This document shows, piece by piece, positions 5,554 to 12,243 of a stretch of 32,000 nucleotides of DNA (position 1 is its first letter; every line of letters begins with the position of its first letter). The stretch is from Nitrosomonadales bacterium (lineage in GTDB: Bacteria > Pseudomonadota > Gammaproteobacteria > Burkholderiales > Gallionellaceae). Location: positions 575,931 to 607,930 of the forward strand of contig JAHFQZ010000001.1 in the NCBI GenBank assembly GCA_023259055.1, read 5' to 3'. The notes beneath the pieces are model-generated. The model saw nothing but the letters and a program-made list of their open reading frames with translations. It was not told where the DNA came from and searched no databases. The position numbers and the translations under genes are program-made.

Positions 5554-5809
5554 AGCCGCAGGTTTCCAACTCTTCCGCTTACAGGCAGGGCTGATGCCTG
5601 CCGACTGGAAGCCGATGCTGAATGTCGGCGCAGGCGCTTGTGAGATTCGCGTCCACGCCTTGGGCGAATGGCGTGTCATCTATGTAGCGAAATTCGCCGA
5701 TGCAGTCTATGTGCTGCATGCCTTCCAGAAGAAAACGCAGCAGACGCGCAAGGAGGACATCGCGCTGGCAAGCGCCCGCTACAAGCAACTCAAGGAAAGT
5801 GCGAAATGA
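5549..5809 (+). pseudogene. 5'-truncated HigB/RelE-ParE (Gp49-like) toxin remnant
   Basis: C-terminal two-thirds only: (FRLQAGL)MPADWKPMLNVGAGACEIRVHALGEWRVIYVAKFADAVYVLHAFQKKTQQTRKEDI. Homology runs upstream of the annotated ATG (5594) to within about 20 nt of the eamA stop, where the frame closes (TGA 5546-5548). The roughly 30 N-terminal residues normally present are missing. Confidence 0.7.
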
Positions 5810-6097
5810 AAAAAGAAAAATTCAAAGCCACCGATTCCTGTGGCAACGTATTTATCGACCTCGGCTTCTCGCCGGAAGAAGCCACCATCCTCGCCATGCG
5901 CTCCCAACTGATGGGCGAACTGCGCATCAAGATTCGCGACATGGGATGGACGCAAGCGAAGCCGACCAAGTGCTCGGCATTTCGCAATCGCGCGTCTCCG
6001 ACCTGATACGCGGCAAGTTCGAGAAGTTCAGCCTGGACATGCTGATTACCTTGGCGACCGTGCGGGGAAAAAAGCAGAACTCAAGCTGGCGGCGTGA
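5806..6097 (+). pseudogene. XRE/HTH antitoxin (HigA-like) with two single-nucleotide frameshifts
   Basis: ATG 5806 overlaps the toxin stop (ATGA). Frame 1 reads MKKEKFKATDSCGNVFIDLGFSPEEATILAMRSQLMGELRIKIRDMGWTQA. After a 1-nt loss near 5958 the HTH continues in another frame (EADQVLGISQSRVSDLIRGKFEKFSLDMLITLATVRGKK). A second 1-nt loss in the A6 run at 6068-6073 restores the natural end AELKLAA-stop (TGA 6095-6097). Confidence 0.7.
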
Positions 6098-6309: not shown

Positions 6310-6852
6310 ATGAACCAAGGGGACGCACTGAGCATGATCACATCAGTGGCACAGATCGAATCGAGGATGTTTCTCATCCGCGGGCAGAAGGTCATGCTCA
6401 GCCAACACCTGGCCGAATTGTATGAAGTCGAGCCACGGGCGTTGAATCAAGCGGTCAAACGCAATATCGAGCGCTTCCCGAAAGACTTCATGTTTCAACT
6501 TACGGAAGAAGAGGATGCACTTCTAAGGTCACAAACTGTGATCTTAAAAACAGGGCGGGGGCAACATCGTAAATACCTGCCTTATGCCTTCACCGAACAG
6601 GGTGTCGCCATGCTTTCCAGCGTCCTGCACAGCGAACGCGCCATTCAGGTCAACATCGAGATCATGCGTGCCTTTGTGCGACTGCGGCAGATGCTCGCCA
6701 CCAATGCCGAGCTTTCCCGCAAACTCATCGCCCTTGAAAAGAAATACGACATACGTTTCAAAGCCGTCTTTGAAGCCATCCACGACCTGATGAGCCCGCC
6801 AGAAAACAAAAAGAAACGCCCCATCGGCTTTACATCGTGGGAAAAGAAATGA
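6310..6852 (+). CDS. ORF6N (KilA-N-related) domain protein, copy 1
   Basis: 180 aa. [59 protein letters not shown] and [10 protein letters not shown] match the ORF6N family pattern. Start could also be ATG 6334. Confidence 0.8.
6524..6546. repeat. Coding-embedded inverted repeat, ORF6N copy 1
   Basis: TAAGGTCACA / AAC / TGTGATCTTA: 10-bp arms with one G:T (G.U in RNA) position. Encodes LRSQTVILK. Confidence 0.8.
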
Positions 6853-7211
6853 CACAGCCCGCCGCCAACCCGCTCTCCGCCAGCGAACCTTGGAGCCTCG
6901 TCGCCGACGGCTGCGCCGAATTCTGGGACAACGTGGTCAAGGGCATCCGCCCCGACAGCACACGCACAGCCCGTCGAACCACATTCGAACACCACATGCG
7001 AAGAACTATGGCGCGAGAAAGAACAGCTTGCGCCAGCTTGGCTGAACTTTATGGCGTACCGACCAAGCGTTTCAATGAACAAGTCAGGAGCAATCTGGAA
7101 TGGCTCCCGGAGGAATTTATGTTTCATCTTACCAATCAGGATCTTAACGTCTTGAGGTCACAATTTGTGACCTCAAGTTCGGATGCTTGGTTAGGGGTGG
7201 GGGTTAAATGA
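6849..7211 (+). pseudogene. Chimeric remnant: methyltransferase-like N-terminal fragment fused to an ORF6N core fragment (copy 2)
   Basis: ATG 6849 overlaps the copy 1 stop (ATGA). The first ~60 aa ([26 protein letters not shown]...) resemble the extreme N-terminus of class I methyltransferases (by recollection only). From ~7035, SLAELYGVPTKRFNEQVRSNLEWLPEEFMFHLTNQDLNVLRSQFVTSS is ORF6N. It lacks both the N-terminal IRGQKV block and everything after the palindrome. Confidence 0.6.
7151..7177. repeat. Coding-embedded perfect palindrome, ORF6N copy 2
   Basis: CTTGAGGTCACAA-T-TTGTGACCTCAAG: 13-bp perfect arms. Encodes LRSQFVTSS. ORF6N homology ends immediately 3' of it. Confidence 0.9.
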
Positions 7212-7275
7212 CAATCACAAGAAAACGTGATCTGCCGCCGATTGCCCATAGCTTGCCGGCCCCGGTTTATTTCAA

Positions 7276-7854
7276 ATGAGCGCATCCACTCTGCTTCCGC
7301 TCGAATCCATTACGCACCGCATCCTGATGCTGCGCGGACAAAAGGTTTTGCTGGATAGTGATTTGGCGGCGCTCTACGACGTGCCAACCAAGCGGTTCAA
7401 CGAGCAGGTCAAACGTAACCTGGAGCGATTTCCAGCAGACTTCATGTTCCAGTTAACCGAGGAAGAATGGGAATCTTTAAGGTCGCAAATTGCGACCTTA
7501 AAGCCCGGTCGCGGCCAACACCGGAAATATATGCCTTATGCCTTTACCGAGCACGGAGCAATCATGGCAGCAACGATCCTGAACAGCCCAAGGGCGACCG
7601 AGGTGTCGGTCTACGTGGTGCGCGCCTTCGTGCGCCTGCGCGAAGTGCTGGCATCGAATGCGGAATTGGCAAAGCGTCTGGATGATCTGGAGCGGACAAC
7701 CGAAGCACTGGCGATGCAGCACGACTCCTTTGCACGCAATACGCGCGCTCAACTCAAGCAGGTGTTCGATGCCATCCGGGAGTTGATGACACCGCCCGAG
7801 CCAACGAAGAAACGGCCTATCGGGTTTATCAGCGGCGAGGAGAAACCGAAGTAG
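7276..7854 (+). CDS. ORF6N (KilA-N-related) domain protein, copy 3
   Basis: 192 aa. [61 protein letters not shown]-terminal coiled-coil-like tail ending KKRPIGF, as in copy 1. Confidence 0.8.
   Translation: MSASTLLPLESITHRILMLRGQKVLLDSDLAALYDVPTKRFNEQVKRNLERFPADFMFQLTEEEWESLRSQIATLKPGRGQHRKYMPYAFTEHGAIMAATILNSPRATEVSVYVVRAFVRLREVLASNAELAKRLDDLERTTEALAMQHDSFARNTRAQLKQVFDAIRELMTPPEPTKKRPIGFISGEEKPK
7475..7503. repeat. Coding-embedded perfect palindrome, ORF6N copy 3
   Basis: CTTTAAGGTCGCAA-A-TTGCGACCTTAAAG: 14-bp perfect arms. Encodes LRSQIATLK. Differs from copy 2 by two paired (compensatory) substitutions. Confidence 0.9.
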
Positions 7855-8002
7855 AGACGGTTAAAAACCAATTTACGGGGGCGGCATTACGATAGCTATG
7901 GAGACTGCAAAAATGAAAAACAAAACCGAACCTGACCCTTCATGGCTAAAAAAATGAATAATCTGATTTAGCTAAATTGTTTTACACCAAAGGAATAGCA
8001 AA

Positions 8003-9409
8003 ATGAAAATTACAAAACTTCATGCTGAGAACGTACACGGCTATCTTCCAATTGACGTCACCTTTTTTGACGATCTTACTTTCCTTACTGGCTTAAATGG
8101 CTCGGGTAAAACATCTGCGCTTCGTTTATTAATGGCACTACTCACGCCAAATATAAATGAGCTTGGTGCGATTTCTTTTTCTTTGGCAGAAGTCACAGTT
8201 ATGGACAATGATCGTGAGATTGTTGTTACTGCAAAAAAAAATAACGACGGCATCGAACTTCGAATCAGCACAAATAGCGAGGCACTTACAATTGCTAACT
8301 CAGACCTTGAGCTACTTATGGAATCGAATCGCGGCGAAGAACCTCGATCACAAAAACGGGAAAAATATCAGTCAAGCTCGGTTTTTAACGAAATCTCAAA
8401 AATGTCCACACCAATGTTTTTGGGTCTAGATCGACGTTTCTATGTTCCAGGTTCATTCACTGACGAACATGATGATATACGGCGGCACGAATATATGGCC
8501 AGAAGGTATTGGGCAGATGATTCCTCATCACGCAGTGCAACTCCTATTACAAGCCTAGTTGAGGTGAATTATTTAGTTGTTACTTGTATGCAAAAAATTA
8601 GAGCTTCACAAGAGCAACTCGACGAGCGTCTGCGGGGGCAATTCTTAACAAAAGCTTTTGAATACAAGCCAAGCGATGTTTTTGCTGGGACAGTCAAAAT
8701 CCCATCCCGTACCGAACTGAATCGTTATCGACAACAACTTTCAAAGATTGAGCAAGCTGCGGAAGGTGTAAAAATACCCGTACCTGAAATACAAGCCTCT
8801 CTTGCTCACTTTTTTGAAAGAATGAGCCTCGTAGTAGATTCGTTGGAAAAAAGTGCGAATGCACCTAAACCAAAAAAATCCTCAAAACGTCCAACTGATA
8901 AAACAACGGAAGCTGCGCTTTTTGATAAAGACTATGTTGAATGGATTATTAACAGGCCACAAGCAGATCGAATCCTTGAACACCTTCAGTTGTTAAATGA
9001 ATATATTGAAAACCGCAACGCCCTCAGAGACCCCATCAACAGATTTGGTAAGCTGGTAAATAATTTTTTTGCTCAAACAAAAAAGGAAGTGATTGTTGCA
9101 CCTAACGGTCAACTTTCAGTTGTAGTCGGAGCTCAAAAGCCAAGTTCAATAAATGCGCTATCCTCTGGTGAGAAACAACTACTAGTGATGCTTGCGCATC
9201 TGTCGCTCAATCCAAACTTGGCGGGTAGCGGGGTATTCATCGTTGATGAACCAGAGCTGTCACTTCATCTTGATTGGCAGGAAAAGTTCGTGGATGCAAT
9301 ACGGGAAGCGAATCCAAAAGTTCAACTTATCTTAGCTACTCATTCCCCTGCCATAATTTTAGATCGTACGGAAGCATGCCGAACTTTGAGTGAGGTATCA
9401 CATGCTTAA
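8003..9409 (+). CDS. ABC/SMC-like defence ATPase (AAA_15/AAA_21-type), AriA-like
   Basis: 468 aa. Walker A GLNGSGKTS, long helical insertion, ABC signature LSSGEKQ, Walker B VFIVDEPELSLH, H-loop ATHSP. AAGGAA SD upstream. AT-rich cassette. Confidence 0.75.
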   Translation: MKITKLHAENVHGYLPIDVTFFDDLTFLTGLNGSGKTSALRLLMALLTPNINELGAISFSLAEVTVMDNDREIVVTAKKNNDGIELRISTNSEALTIANSDLELLMESNRGEEPRSQKREKYQSSSVFNEISKMSTPMFLGLDRRFYVPGSFTDEHDDIRRHEYMARRYWADDSSSRSATPITSLVEVNYLVVTCMQKIRASQEQLDERLRGQFLTKAFEYKPSDVFAGTVKIPSRTELNRYRQQLSKIEQAAEGVKIPVPEIQASLAHFFERMSLVVDSLEKSANAPKPKKSSKRPTDKTTEAALFDKDYVEWIINRPQADRILEHLQLLNEYIENRNALRDPINRFGKLVNNFFAQTKKEVIVAPNGQLSVVVGAQKPSSINALSSGEKQLLVMLAHLSLNPNLAGSGVFIVDEPELSLHLDWQEKFVDAIREANPKVQLILATHSPAIILDRTEACRTLSEVSHA

Positions 9410-10265
9410 ATGGCCTGATCGCGCAATATCTGCAATAAGGAAGCTCTTTGAACCCTTGCAAGACATAGATGTATATGTGGAAGATGCCCACGATGAAGCG
9501 TTTTATCGATGCCTACTAAACTCAGCAACAAGAAATAATGATGTGAAGGTGGCTCGAGTTTTTGCTTTGGGAGGTAGGCAACCTGTTATTGATGCCGCAA
9601 AGATTCATGACCAAAAAACTAGACGAGCACTGTTCATTATTGATGGAGATATATCGTGGGTAAAAGGTGAAGCAATTCCATCAATGGTCGGCTTGCATTG
9701 CCATGATGCATATTGCGTTGAAAATCTACTTTTATGTGAAAAGGCACTGACGCTCCTCCTATCACAAGATACCGCAATTACTGAAGACAAAGCCGCCGAT
9801 CGTTTAGCCTATGTCAAATGGATTCAATCTATCGAACTTCATTTGATTGAACTATTTTCAGCTTTTGCCACCGTCCATTATTTTGATCAGACCGTAAAAA
9901 CGGTTGCTCAAGGGGTGGGGGTTATGTGTATCAAACACCGCTCAACGGGCACGACTGAACTTGATCCAAGTAAAGTACGCGCCGCCAAAGATAAAGCTCT
10001 AAAATCGGCTGAGAAAGTAGCAGCCCCAGACGCAATATCAGAAGTTTATGACCGTATGCTCAATCGCATAAAAGGTCTGCATAATCCACTACATGCCGTA
10101 TCCGGCAAAGACTTTCTTATTCCGCTCCTCGATTTTCACTTGCAATCTTTTGGCTGCCGCATCAAACGAAAGGCACTGCGAATTCGATTGGCCAGTGCTG
10201 GCGATCCTATGCGTTTCGAAGCCCTTGCTGATGCTTTGAATCGGGCAGCAAGAGGCTATACCTAG
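9402..10265 (+). CDS. DUF4435/Toprim-like nuclease, AriB-like
   Basis: 287 aa from ATG 9402 (GAGG at 9392-9395; 8-nt overlap with the ATPase stop; the ORF-track GTG 9390 is less likely). VYVEDAHDEAFY (conserved Glu) and FIIDGD (DxD) in Toprim order. Confidence 0.7.
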   Translation: MLKWPDRAISAIRKLFEPLQDIDVYVEDAHDEAFYRCLLNSATRNNDVKVARVFALGGRQPVIDAAKIHDQKTRRALFIIDGDISWVKGEAIPSMVGLHCHDAYCVENLLLCEKALTLLLSQDTAITEDKAADRLAYVKWIQSIELHLIELFSAFATVHYFDQTVKTVAQGVGVMCIKHRSTGTTELDPSKVRAAKDKALKSAEKVAAPDAISEVYDRMLNRIKGLHNPLHAVSGKDFLIPLLDFHLQSFGCRIKRKALRIRLASAGDPMRFEALADALNRAARGYT

Positions 10266-10425
10266 CCGCATATGGATATGGGGCTAACGGGACAGCATCG
10301 ATATACTTTCATGAGCCAAACATATTGAAGTCGAGATGCTTTCAAAGTTGACTGGAATGTTTGAATGAAAATCGACTCCGTACCTTTTTTCTCTTCCTTC
10401 CCCACATAACCACTAACCCCACCCC

Positions 10426-12243
10426 ATGGCCACCCTGATCCCCACCCTCGGCACCGCTCGCTTCGATGCGCGCGGTGAATTACGTCTAGCCGAACGGCTG
10501 AAGGATTGCCTCGAAGACAACGCCTGGGTGTGGCACAACATTCCGGTCGGGCCATTCGGCAGGCATCCCGATTTCGTGGCGCTGCATCCGCAGCAGGGCA
10601 TTGTGGTGTTGGAGGTGAAGGATTGGCGGCTGGATACGATAGGAGATGTAAATAGCAAGCAGGTCGAGTTGATAACTGATCGCGGTAATGTGTGGACTGA
10701 CAACCCCTTCGAGCAGGTGCGCAACTACATGTTCAACGTGGTGGATACGTTGAAGCGCGATCCGCTGCTGGTCAACGATGGTGGTAGCTTCAAGGGTAAG
10801 CCGGTATTTTCTTTTGGGTACGGCGTGGCATTCGCCAACATCACGCGCAAGCAGTTCGAGCAGACCAATTTGCGAGATGTATTCCCGCCGGAGCGCTGCA
10901 TCTTCCGCGACGAGATGGCAGAGAAGGTGGATGCTGATGCGTTTCGCGAGCACGTCTGGCGCATGGCATCGCCGCGCATCGGGCCTGCATTGTCGCTGCC
11001 GCAGATCGACCGGGTGCGCGCGCGGCTGTTCCCGGAGATTCGCGTCACCCAGATTGCGCTGCCGTTTGACGAGCCGCCTTCCGATGCCTCGCCCGCCGAT
11101 GACCGCATGCTGGAGGTGATGGACATGCAGCAGGAGCTGCTGGCGCGCAGCATGGGCGAGGGACACCGTATCGTGCGCGGCGTGGCTGGCTCCGGCAAGA
11201 CGCTGATCTTGGCGTTCCGCGCCGAGCAGATCGCACGCGCGGCGAGTCGCCCGGTGCTGCTGTTGAGTTACGCGAACGGCATCTCGGGTCGGTTGGAGAA
11301 TGCGATGCAGGACAGAGGGGTGGAGGATAAGGTGATCACCTCGACCTTCCATGCCTGGTGCTTCAAGATGCTGCGCGAGTACGACCTACCGCAACCGAGC
11401 GAGAAGGATTTTCCCGACTTTTCGGAGCGGCTCGCCGCCAGCGTGCAGGCCGTGCTCGATGCCGCCGAGCGCGGATTGATCCCGGGCGGGCAGTACGACG
11501 CAGTGCTGATCGACGAGGCGCACGACTTCGAACCGCAATGGCTGGCGCTGGCGGCGAAGATGGTCAACCCGGACACCAAGGCGCTGATGATCGTTTACGA
11601 CGATGCGCAGGCGATTTACAAAGGGCGCAAGCGCCCGGTGTGGAAGCAGCTCGGCATCGAGGCCGCCGGACGCACGACGGTGCTCAAGGTGAATTACCGC
11701 AATACCGCGCAGATATTGCGCTTCGCGCGCAAATTCGCCGCCGATGTGATCGGCGCACCTGGCGTATGCGCCGGTGACGAGAGCGCGATCCTGATGCCGG
11801 AAGACGGCGGGCGCGAAGGCGTGGAGCCAGTGGTGCGCCAGTGCGTGAGCTATGACGGCGAAGCACATGCGATTGCGGAATGGTTGCACGGACGCAAGGC
11901 CGCCGGTTACCAGTGGGGGCAGATGGCGGTGCTGTATCCCCGGCATTTCATCGGCGAGCGCTTCGAGAAAATACTGGCGAAATCCGGCATACCGATTAAC
12001 GTGGCAAAAGATCATGGCAACCGCATACAAACGGAGCGGGACGAGGTGCGCTTCCTCTCCATGCACAACGCCAAAGGACTGGAGTTCCCCTGCGTAGCAA
12101 TAGGCGGATTGGGTGAGCTAAAGAAGGCTGAGGATATAGAAGATGACATACGCCTGACCTACGTCGCCATCACGCGCGCCACGCACGAGGCATTCATCAC
12201 TTACTCGAACATGTCCGAACTTGTGGGGCGGTTGGTGGTGTAG
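10426..12243 (+). CDS. NERD/PD-(D/E)xK nuclease domain fused to SF1 UvrD/Rep-like helicase
   Basis: 605 aa. N-terminal HPDFVALHP...GIVVLEVKDW. Helicase motifs GVAGSGKT, VLIDEAHDF, IVYDDAQAIY, VNYRNT, SMHNAKGLEF, YVAITRATHE. GC-rich. No SD; preceded by a C/T-rich tract. Confidence 0.8.
   Translation: MATLIPTLGTARFDARGELRLAERLKDCLEDNAWVWHNIPVGPFGRHPDFVALHPQQGIVVLEVKDWRLDTIGDVNSKQVELITDRGNVWTDNPFEQVRNYMFNVVDTLKRDPLLVNDGGSFKGKPVFSFGYGVAFANITRKQFEQTNLRDVFPPERCIFRDEMAEKVDADAFREHVWRMASPRIGPALSLPQIDRVRARLFPEIRVTQIALPFDEPPSDASPADDRMLEVMDMQQELLARSMGEGHRIVRGVAGSGKTLILAFRAEQIARAASRPVLLLSYANGISGRLENAMQDRGVEDKVITSTFHAWCFKMLREYDLPQPSEKDFPDFSERLAASVQAVLDAAERGLIPGGQYDAVLIDEAHDFEPQWLALAAKMVNPDTKALMIVYDDAQAIYKGRKRPVWKQLGIEAAGRTTVLKVNYRNTAQILRFARKFAADVIGAPGVCAGDESAILMPEDGGREGVEPVVRQCVSYDGEAHAIAEWLHGRKAAGYQWGQMAVLYPRHFIGERFEKILAKSGIPINVAKDHGNRIQTERDEVRFLSMHNAKGLEFPCVAIGGLGELKKAEDIEDDIRLTYVAITRATHEAFITYSNMSELVGRLVV

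Follow-up and report, generated by a model that had tools for sequence, protein, structure and literature searches.

Two overlapping genes on the forward strand of a Gallionellaceae genome raise the question of whether they encode a PARIS anti-phage system, in which an ABC-type ATPase (AriA) is paired with a DUF4435/Toprim nuclease (AriB), or another of the systems that combine an ATPase with a nuclease. The genes lie in a stretch of 32,000 nucleotides from a Nitrosomonadales bacterium (contig JAHFQZ010000001.1, positions 575,931 to 607,930), which is referred to here as the window. A first-pass annotation made from the DNA letters had described open reading frames (ORFs) at 8003-9409 and 9402-10265 and had read them as a PARIS-type pair, and both ORFs were found as described, with products of 468 and 287 amino acids (aa). 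We conclude that the pair is very probably a two-gene AriA/AriB system from a clade remote from the PARIS of Escherichia coli B185 (PDB 8UX9, 8V45-8V49; Rousset 2022, Burman 2024, Deep 2024, Belukhina 2025). Both proteins are members of their families by profile and by fold, and the pair is a previously uncharacterised, ordinary member of known PARIS that standard defence finders would label as such.

According to the published rule, PARIS is called where AAA_15 reaches at least 32 bits or AAA_21 at least 27 bits and an adjacent DUF4435 match reaches at least 27 bits (PMC9122126). The pair was found to pass this rule with 77.1 bits for AAA_15 (E = 2.6e-21) and 82.3 bits for AAA_21 (E = 8.7e-23), both full length, and with 64.8 bits for DUF4435 (E = 1.3e-17) over profile positions 2-235 of 238. 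The dedicated AriA and AriB hidden Markov models (HMMs) of PADLOC were matched as well. The best PADLOC match of the ATPase was AriA PDLC04164 (4.9e-34), a second AriA model, PDLC02979, was matched end to end (2.3e-22) and the runner-up was formed by the PtuA models. For the effector, AriB PDLC02983 was the sole PADLOC match (2.6e-19, full length). The proposals of a PARIS-type ATPase beside a DUF4435 gene and of a DUF4435/Toprim identity for the second product were therefore upheld by the rule and the PADLOC models, and also by the fold matches described below. No NCBIfam model covers the effector and all NCBIfam matches of the ATPase were sub-threshold, with PtuA at 72.6 bits against a cutoff of 500, RecF at 22.1 against 172 and Rad50 at 20.7 against 1087. 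As the RecF and Rad50 scores are far under their cutoffs, a housekeeping RecF/RecN/SbcC/Rad50 identity fails for this ATPase; the first-pass annotation had named clustering with RecF/RecN/SbcC among the outcomes that would count against its reading. The closest PDB match of the ATPase was AriA by both profile and fold.

Comparison with solved structures points in the same direction. The best PDB sequence match of the ATPase was B185 AriA (8ux9_B), at 2.5e-15 with the single sequence and 2.3e-24 with a profile of 31 homologues (56-95% identity), where PtuA followed at about 1e-16. The AlphaFold model of the ATPase has a predicted local distance difference test (pLDDT) score of 73.8, which is middling, and it places long helices at residues 183-219, 236-253, 261-285, 309-341 and 343-359 as an insertion that splits the ATPase head in two. 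In a fold search against the PDB the best 15 matches of this model were all AriA chains (E = 1e-14 or weaker, template modelling (TM) score 0.54-0.70, 16-19% identity), followed by retron PtuA, SMC and Rad50 heads at 5e-10 or weaker. The helical insertions and the nearest solved structure are thus those of AriA, at moderate model confidence. The effector model is of higher quality (pLDDT 91.9), and AriB chains were the only significant matches in its fold search (8ux9_A at 4.5e-5 and 8v46_D at 1.5e-4, probability 1.00 each); GajA and OLD were non-significant, with E >0.5.

The catalytic motifs of both proteins are intact as judged from the alignments. In the ATPase, K36 of Walker A, the LSSGEKQ signature, the putative catalytic residue E416 of Walker B (aligned to E393 of B185 AriA) and H447 of the H-loop were all found to be present. 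Invariant residues among the 31 ATPase homologues are G30, N32, G33, S34, G35, K36 and T37 of Walker A, L386-S-S-G-E390 and Q392 of the signature, F412-I-V-D-E-P-E418, H422 and A445-T-H-S-P449. In the effector, the Toprim fold indicated by the structural matches is accompanied by a conserved acidic set of the two-metal type: our alignment of 29 sequences (50-96% identity) shows E27, D28, D31, E32, D81-G-D83, E107-N108 and S234-G-K236 to be invariant. The two-metal Toprim site of B185 AriB consists of E26, D30, D88, E90 and E122, and an E26A mutant is dead (PMC11464382). The acidic residues E27, D31, D81, D83 and E107 of the window protein occur in the same order as this set, although individual residues were matched by motif order and by a weak hhalign alignment, not by structural superposition. 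That alignment, to the DUF4435 protein of a P2-like phage (probability 22%), pairs VYVEDAHDE with VYVEGPDD, IDGD with cDaD and YCVEN with hsIEN. The motifs quoted in the first-pass annotation (GLNGSGKT, LSSGEKQ, VFIVDEPE, LSLH, ATHSP, VYVEDAHDE and DGD) were all recovered by translating the exact coordinates; its distance of about 75 aa from the Glu motif to FIIDGD has to be corrected to about 54 aa (E27 to D81).

The two genes also appear to be joined at the level of translation. The ORF list puts the start of the second gene at GTG 9390, and we consider ATG 9402 to be the real start of the ariB-like gene because all 28 aligned effector homologues open with M-L/I-K/R/Q/S-W. These N-termini and the junction sequence, GAGGTATCACATGCTTAA, confirm the earlier assignment of an ATG 9402 start that is preceded by GAGG and overlaps the ATPase stop by 8 nt. 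Among related loci, numbered here with the prefix L, the same 8-nt overlap was observed in L004, L005, L006 and L009, and a gap of 6-9 nt was observed in L007, L008 and L010. The overlap and the ribosome-binding site suggest co-expression of the two genes and nothing beyond it. Taken over the loci compared, the gene pairing is conserved and, by its sequence features, translationally coupled. Coordinates of the features are collected in Table 1.

Table 1. Positions in the window of the ariA-like and ariB-like genes, their motifs and the segments that contain them
Feature	Position	Strand	Evidence or remark
Variable slot of defence hotspot	6920..10424	.	Framed by conserved ORF6N and NERD-UvrD genes
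Transferred cassette, 2,294 bp	7983..10276	+	blastn, 93.5% identity to groundwater contigs L012-L019, in other genomic context
ariA-like gene, ABC/SMC-type ATPase, putative sensor and scaffold	8003..9409	+	ORF, Pfam, PADLOC, PDB sequence and fold matches
Walker A GLNGSGKT	8090..8113	+	K36 = B185 AriA K39; sequence alignment
Lys/Arg-rich loop, predicted disordered	8849..8932	+	Residues 283-310, KSANAPKPKKSSKRPTDKTTEAALFDKD, between two long insertion helices
ABC signature LSSGEKQ, Walker B VFIVDEPE, D-loop LSLH	9158..9268	+	LSSGEKQ at 9158-9178, VFIVDEPE then LSLH at 9233-9268; aligned to B185 AriA 361-429; invariant in family
H-loop ATHSP (H447)	9335..9349	+	Aligned to B185 AriA; invariant in family
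Coupling junction	9392..9409	+	GAGG ribosome-binding site 9392-9395, 6-nt spacer, ATG 9402, TAA stop 9407-9409, 8-nt overlap
ariB-like gene, DUF4435/Toprim protein, putative nuclease effector	9402..10265	+	Pfam, PADLOC, fold match
First Toprim acidic motif VYVEDAHDE	9471..9497	+	E27, D31 = B185 AriB E26, D30
Toprim DxD motif D81-G-D83	9642..9650	+	Invariant; proposed = B185 D88, E90
E107-N108, motif YCxEN, candidate fifth acidic ligand	9720..9725	+	Invariant; B185 E122

Several observations weigh against the PARIS assignment and have to be set beside this evidence. Identity to the sole biochemically characterised PARIS is only about 13-18%. The effector gave no relevant match to PDB sequences, either as a single sequence or as the 29-sequence profile, and its structural agreement with the AriB chains is modest (13-14% identity, Foldseek TM 0.39-0.47). 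The score of the AriA model is too low to judge hexamer formation. The trigger-binding surface may differ from that of B185 AriA, because the counterparts of the two B185 pore loops were found to be roughly neutral. In addition, no relative was found among IMG/VR viral contigs with the motif patterns used. The missing effector match does not set this protein apart within PARIS, as the DUF4435 protein of a PARIS-type pair in a P2-like E. coli phage likewise failed to match PDB AriB by phmmer. For this reason the blank appears to reflect general divergence among AriB clades, not non-membership, and the question was decided by the fold search. The suggestion in the first-pass annotation that the pair might be a distant subtype was therefore borne out, both by the low identity to the solved proteins and by the lack of an effector sequence match to PDB AriB.

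The likenesses to B185 PARIS are those of architecture and the differences are those of sequence and setting. As in B185, an ABC ATPase of about 465 aa (468 aa here, 464 aa in B185) is followed in the same orientation by a DUF4435/Toprim protein of about 290-305 aa (287 aa here), with the same ATPase motifs, the same order of Toprim acidic residues and a location in a defence hotspot. B185 provides the best sequence match of the ATPase and the best fold match of both window proteins. Unlike these features, overall identity is low and the effector lies beyond sequence detection by pairwise or family-profile searches. The spacing within the Toprim domain is also shorter than in B185, with 54 aa instead of 62 aa from E to DxD and 26 aa instead of 34 aa from DxD to the following E, and the second Toprim motif reads DGD, compared with D88-x-E90 in B185. 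The setting is a probable Gallionellaceae chromosome in our case and a P4 satellite in the case of B185. Such a host is suggested by neighbouring housekeeping proteins, whose cluster mates (at least 90% identity) bear the names Gallionella sp. and Nitrosomonadales bacterium.

Another difference concerns the part of AriA that may recognise the trigger. B185 AriA has its basic pore loops at residues 113-124 and 161-174, and their counterparts in the window protein (about 105-123 and about 148-182) have a roughly neutral net charge across the clade. A separate Lys-rich loop at residues 283-310 is conserved here and is predicted to be disordered, with pLDDT <50 at residues 291-307. We noticed that the sequence of this loop is variable, yet its net charge is +2 to +8 in all 31 family members. 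Because of its place between two long insertion helices, it could, speculatively, be considered a candidate trigger-binding element.

If the pair is to be regarded as a system, its two genes should be inherited together. A scan of species-representative genomes with the effector returned eight loci (36-57% identity) from Lysobacterales, Syntrophales, Rhodocyclales, Nitrospiraceae, Bryobacteraceae, Pseudanabaena and unclassified beta- and deltaproteobacterial metagenome-assembled genomes. An AriA homologue (45-65% identity) was found directly upstream in all seven loci that have upstream DNA, and the eighth locus ends at a contig edge where part of the 3' end of ariA can still be detected. The identities of ATPase and effector to the window proteins fall broadly in parallel, from 65% and 45% in L007 to 45% and 36% in L010. 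No third conserved gene was observed within 3.5 kb when flanking ORFs of 10 loci were compared all against all, which indicates that the pair is self-sufficient. The ORF6N genes and the NERD-UvrD helicase that neighbour the pair in the window do not travel with it in related loci. The sole shared flanking gene, a YhcG/DUF1016 nuclease, is present in two loci and lies on a different side of the pair in each. This PDDEXK nuclease lies at 9101-10093 in L004 and at 3619-4458 in L008, and the two copies, from unrelated genomes, are 58% identical; such neighbours are consistent with a defence-island setting. Together, the pairing in seven of seven loci and the fact that the pair alone forms the transferred block described below show inheritance of ariA and ariB as a unit.

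The family around the pair is extensive. The effector profile retrieved 1,025 clusters (50% identity) at E <= 0.001, of which 318 were at E <= 1e-30, and hence the clade is large; the listed matches that are full length measure about 280-300 aa. As a separate observation, P0122 and P0002, apparently one 2,524-nt Logan contig, encode an ATPase that is 88% and an effector that is 72% identical to those of the window, a difference that may point to recombination or to a higher rate of evolution in the effector.

The boundaries of the pair can be drawn more closely from DNA comparisons. The block shared with groundwater metagenome contigs begins 20 nt before the ATG of ariA and ends 11 nt past the stop of ariB. 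In these contigs the effector is 96% and the ATPase 95% identical to the window proteins and the pair is located between ftsE/ftsX and ftsY. The GC content of the cassette is 42.6%, against 55.4% and 54.7% in its flanks and 61% in the adjacent helicase gene, and a low-GC tract extends from about 7890 to about 10400 when followed in 100-nt steps. Spot counts given in the first-pass annotation were reproduced (38.3% at 8041-8100, 43.3% at 9001-9060 and 66.7% at 11101-11160), and its view of a recently imported cassette agrees with the contrast of 42.6% with about 55% GC, with the 93.5%-identical block elsewhere and with a sister genome that lacks the pair at this site. The comparison indicates that the pair moved horizontally as a unit.

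Some details of the groundwater contigs were noted along the way. In L012 (3559-8585) and in L014-L019 the pair is flanked by a 58-aa SRP54-like fragment and full-length ftsY, and the ftsY fragment suggests insertion at the ftsY end with partial duplication. A 49-aa HI1420-type antidote-like fragment precedes the pair in the groundwater contigs, and a gene of 309 or 330 aa without a Pfam or PADLOC match follows it after 16-79 nt.

At the window locus, the site of insertion was recognised by comparison with the sister contig L023. Synteny with this contig stops at window position 6919 and returns at 10425, and the genes in the same order are ORF6N (88% identity), NERD-UvrD (92%), radical-SAM (87%) and a 3'-5' exonuclease (89.5%). 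The slot of the window contains two extra ORF6N copies and PARIS, and the slot of L023 (2748-7000) contains a mad2-like methyltransferase, PsyrT (3.4e-278) and PsyrA (4.9e-139). Because L023 carries the methyltransferase and PsyrTA between the same framing genes, the pair is best described from synteny as cargo in a variable defence hotspot. The search for mobility signatures brought up no tRNA gene, Rfam family or recombinase gene that would explain mobility and no convincing repeats, direct or inverted, in the flanks, and a scan for promoters and terminators performed no better than on shuffled sequence. The G-rich 14-mer AGGGGTGGGGGTTA is repeated exactly, with one copy at 7193-7206, where the truncated ORF6N gene ends, and the other at 9911-9924 within ariB. 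At the right border of the slot, an imperfect inverted copy (10403-10435) is present shortly before NERD-UvrD begins. The chance of a 14-mer match in 7 kb is roughly estimated at about 0.1-0.2.

The helicase downstream of the pair raises the possibility of a three-gene Gabija-like system, in which a split GajA-type ATPase/Toprim would act on DNA together with a GajB-like helicase encoded at 10426-12243. Gabija does join an ABC ATPase, a Toprim domain and a UvrD helicase (PMC11464382), and the helicase gene here begins 161 nt past ariB on the same strand and gives weak matches to the GajB profiles of PADLOC (4e-21). Its top PADLOC match is nevertheless a separate family, C3a187 (NERD+UvrD, 9.7e-130), its GC content is 61% against 41-44% for the pair, it is kept in the sister genome without PARIS and it does not adjoin the pair in any other locus. 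The shared cassette stops at 10276, before the helicase, and GajA was not among the best 25 of the 130 PADLOC families matched. In Gabija and in Old of phage P2, which likewise consist of an ABC ATPase and a Toprim domain, the two are fused in one protein with a Toprim of the Toprim_Old type, whereas here they are separate genes and the nuclease is DUF4435. GC content, independent inheritance of the helicase and the cassette borders thus led us to reject the trio as highly improbable. The PARIS architecture itself is also known as class 4 of the OLD nuclease family.

A second alternative carries somewhat more weight, namely that the genes form an OLD/Septu-like ATPase-nuclease pair which has PARIS architecture but another mechanism, such as a DNA or other RNA target or the sensing of something other than an anti-restriction protein. 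PtuA of Septu and of type I-A retrons has a related AAA_15/AAA_21 head and ranked second to AriA both by profile and by fold, and its PADLOC profiles nearly match the AriA profiles on the ATPase (4.1e-26 versus 4.9e-34). The low identity to B185 and the non-basic equivalents of its pore loops, with another basic loop conserved in the clade, can also be counted for this alternative. Pore residues are reported to vary among PARIS clades, and trigger specificity is believed to depend on them (PMC11464382). The partner gene speaks against it: PtuA is accompanied by the HNH protein PtuB, with or without a retron, and no such gene is present at the window pair, where the partner is DUF4435 and has AriB as its only significant fold and PADLOC match. 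Moreover, published trees unite diverse ATPase and DUF4435 pairs in one PARIS family of 11 co-evolving clades (PMC11464382). We therefore regard a different mechanism as improbable. It is also highly unlikely that the genes are a selfish toxin-antitoxin addiction pair, with AriB as toxin and AriA as antitoxin, which stabilises the island without sensing phage. In favour of this reading, the chain is called 'AriA antitoxin' by its PDB depositors, toxin-antitoxin-like genes such as the Gp49/HigB-like gene at 5594-5809 are found around the cassette, and the sister-genome slot holds PsyrTA, a PsyrT/PsyrA pair in PADLOC. Against this, characterised members of the family protect against phage and require a phage trigger, and the conserved catalytic residues of the ATPase indicate an active sensing cycle, not simple neutralisation.

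With the genes taken as PARIS, a mechanism can be proposed from the work on B185. In that system an AriA6:AriB3 complex sequesters AriB, which is released in an ATP-dependent manner upon trigger binding, and the released AriB dimer cleaves the Lys, Thr and Asn tRNAs of its E. coli host, with K60 and K64 holding the anticodon loop; these tRNA targets are known only for B185. By analogy, the AriA-like ATPase of the window would assemble through its helical insertion into a higher-order scaffold that holds the Toprim nuclease inactive. A phage-encoded trigger protein would then bind AriA and, with ATP, set AriB free. Free AriB would dimerise and, through the putative two-metal site formed by E27, D31, D81, D83 and E107, nick specific host tRNAs in the anticodon stem-loop and leave 3'-OH and 5'-phosphate ends, upon which translation would halt and the infection would abort. 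We infer the stoichiometry of the complex, the identity of the trigger, the RNA target and the abortive-infection outcome for the window pair from this analogy. Triggering by phage and protection against it receive indirect support from the sister genome, in which PsyrTA occupies this chromosomal slot. A functionally distinct PARIS subtype, in which the trigger would be sensed through AriA loop 283-310, the effector would cut another set of RNAs and the genes would spread as a promoterless 2.3-kb unit into existing defence hotspots, is conceivable but doubtful.

The remaining genes of the slot and its surroundings were also characterised. Upstream of the pair there are three tandem ORF6N-domain paralogues at 6310-6852, 6849-7211 and 7276-7854. 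The middle copy is truncated (120 aa, Pfam positions 15-63 of 86 only) and the two full-length copies match the PADLOC candidate PDC-S05 at about 1e-54 to 1e-57. A 22-nt repeat family, D1, lies within the ORF6N genes and appears to reflect common coding sequence. Further upstream, at the left edge of the island, there is a Gp49/HigB-like toxin gene (Pfam 2.1e-19) that shares 4 nt with a 66-aa ORF at 5806-6006. This ORF has no Pfam or PADLOC match, and the two genes probably form a toxin-antitoxin pair. In L008, too, a Gp49-like gene was seen just downstream of the PARIS pair. On the other side, the 605-aa NERD and UvrD-type helicase matches C3a187 over its full length and belongs to a cluster of 107 members at 90% identity. 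As 92% DNA identity is kept in the sister genome without PARIS, it seems to be a stable element that frames the hotspot. The UvrD-type helicase that adjoins the pair is in this respect an independent resident, unlike GajB of Gabija.

Pairs of the same kind were found in phage genomes. In the Sinorhizobium phage Aussie (OR786373.1, L020 566-2775) an unannotated PARIS-type pair, AUSSIE_2/3, is located at the left end of a temperate phage by the c repressor and ner, and the P2-like E. coli phage vB_EcoM-813R9 carries the pair URC10464/URC10465. Both have the same architecture as the window pair, an overlapping or abutting junction and the same Pfam matches. The ATPase and effector of Aussie are 31% and 29% identical to those of the window over their full length, and the effector of the P2-like phage aligns with the window effector over the Toprim core only. 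The phage-borne pairs differ in their setting, which is by the c repressor in Aussie and in the P2 tail-gene hotspot in vB_EcoM-813R9, and they are annotated merely as hypothetical proteins or ATPase.

The result mainly confirms existing knowledge on PARIS, and its most instructive by-products are the PsyrTA hotspot exchange and the tight borders of the cassette. The locus provides a clean natural case of defence-cassette exchange, in which the same slot is occupied by PARIS in one of two Gallionella-like genomes and by PsyrTA in the other, while the PARIS pair recurs elsewhere at 93.5% identity with homology that ends no more than 20 nt from the coding sequences. It also documents a large environmental PARIS clade that is too far from the characterised system for pairwise detection of the effector. 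The AriA loop, conserved in charge and variable in sequence, may serve as a testable candidate for trigger recognition, and the clade would be useful for testing whether tRNA targeting and the sensing of DNA mimics hold throughout the PARIS family.

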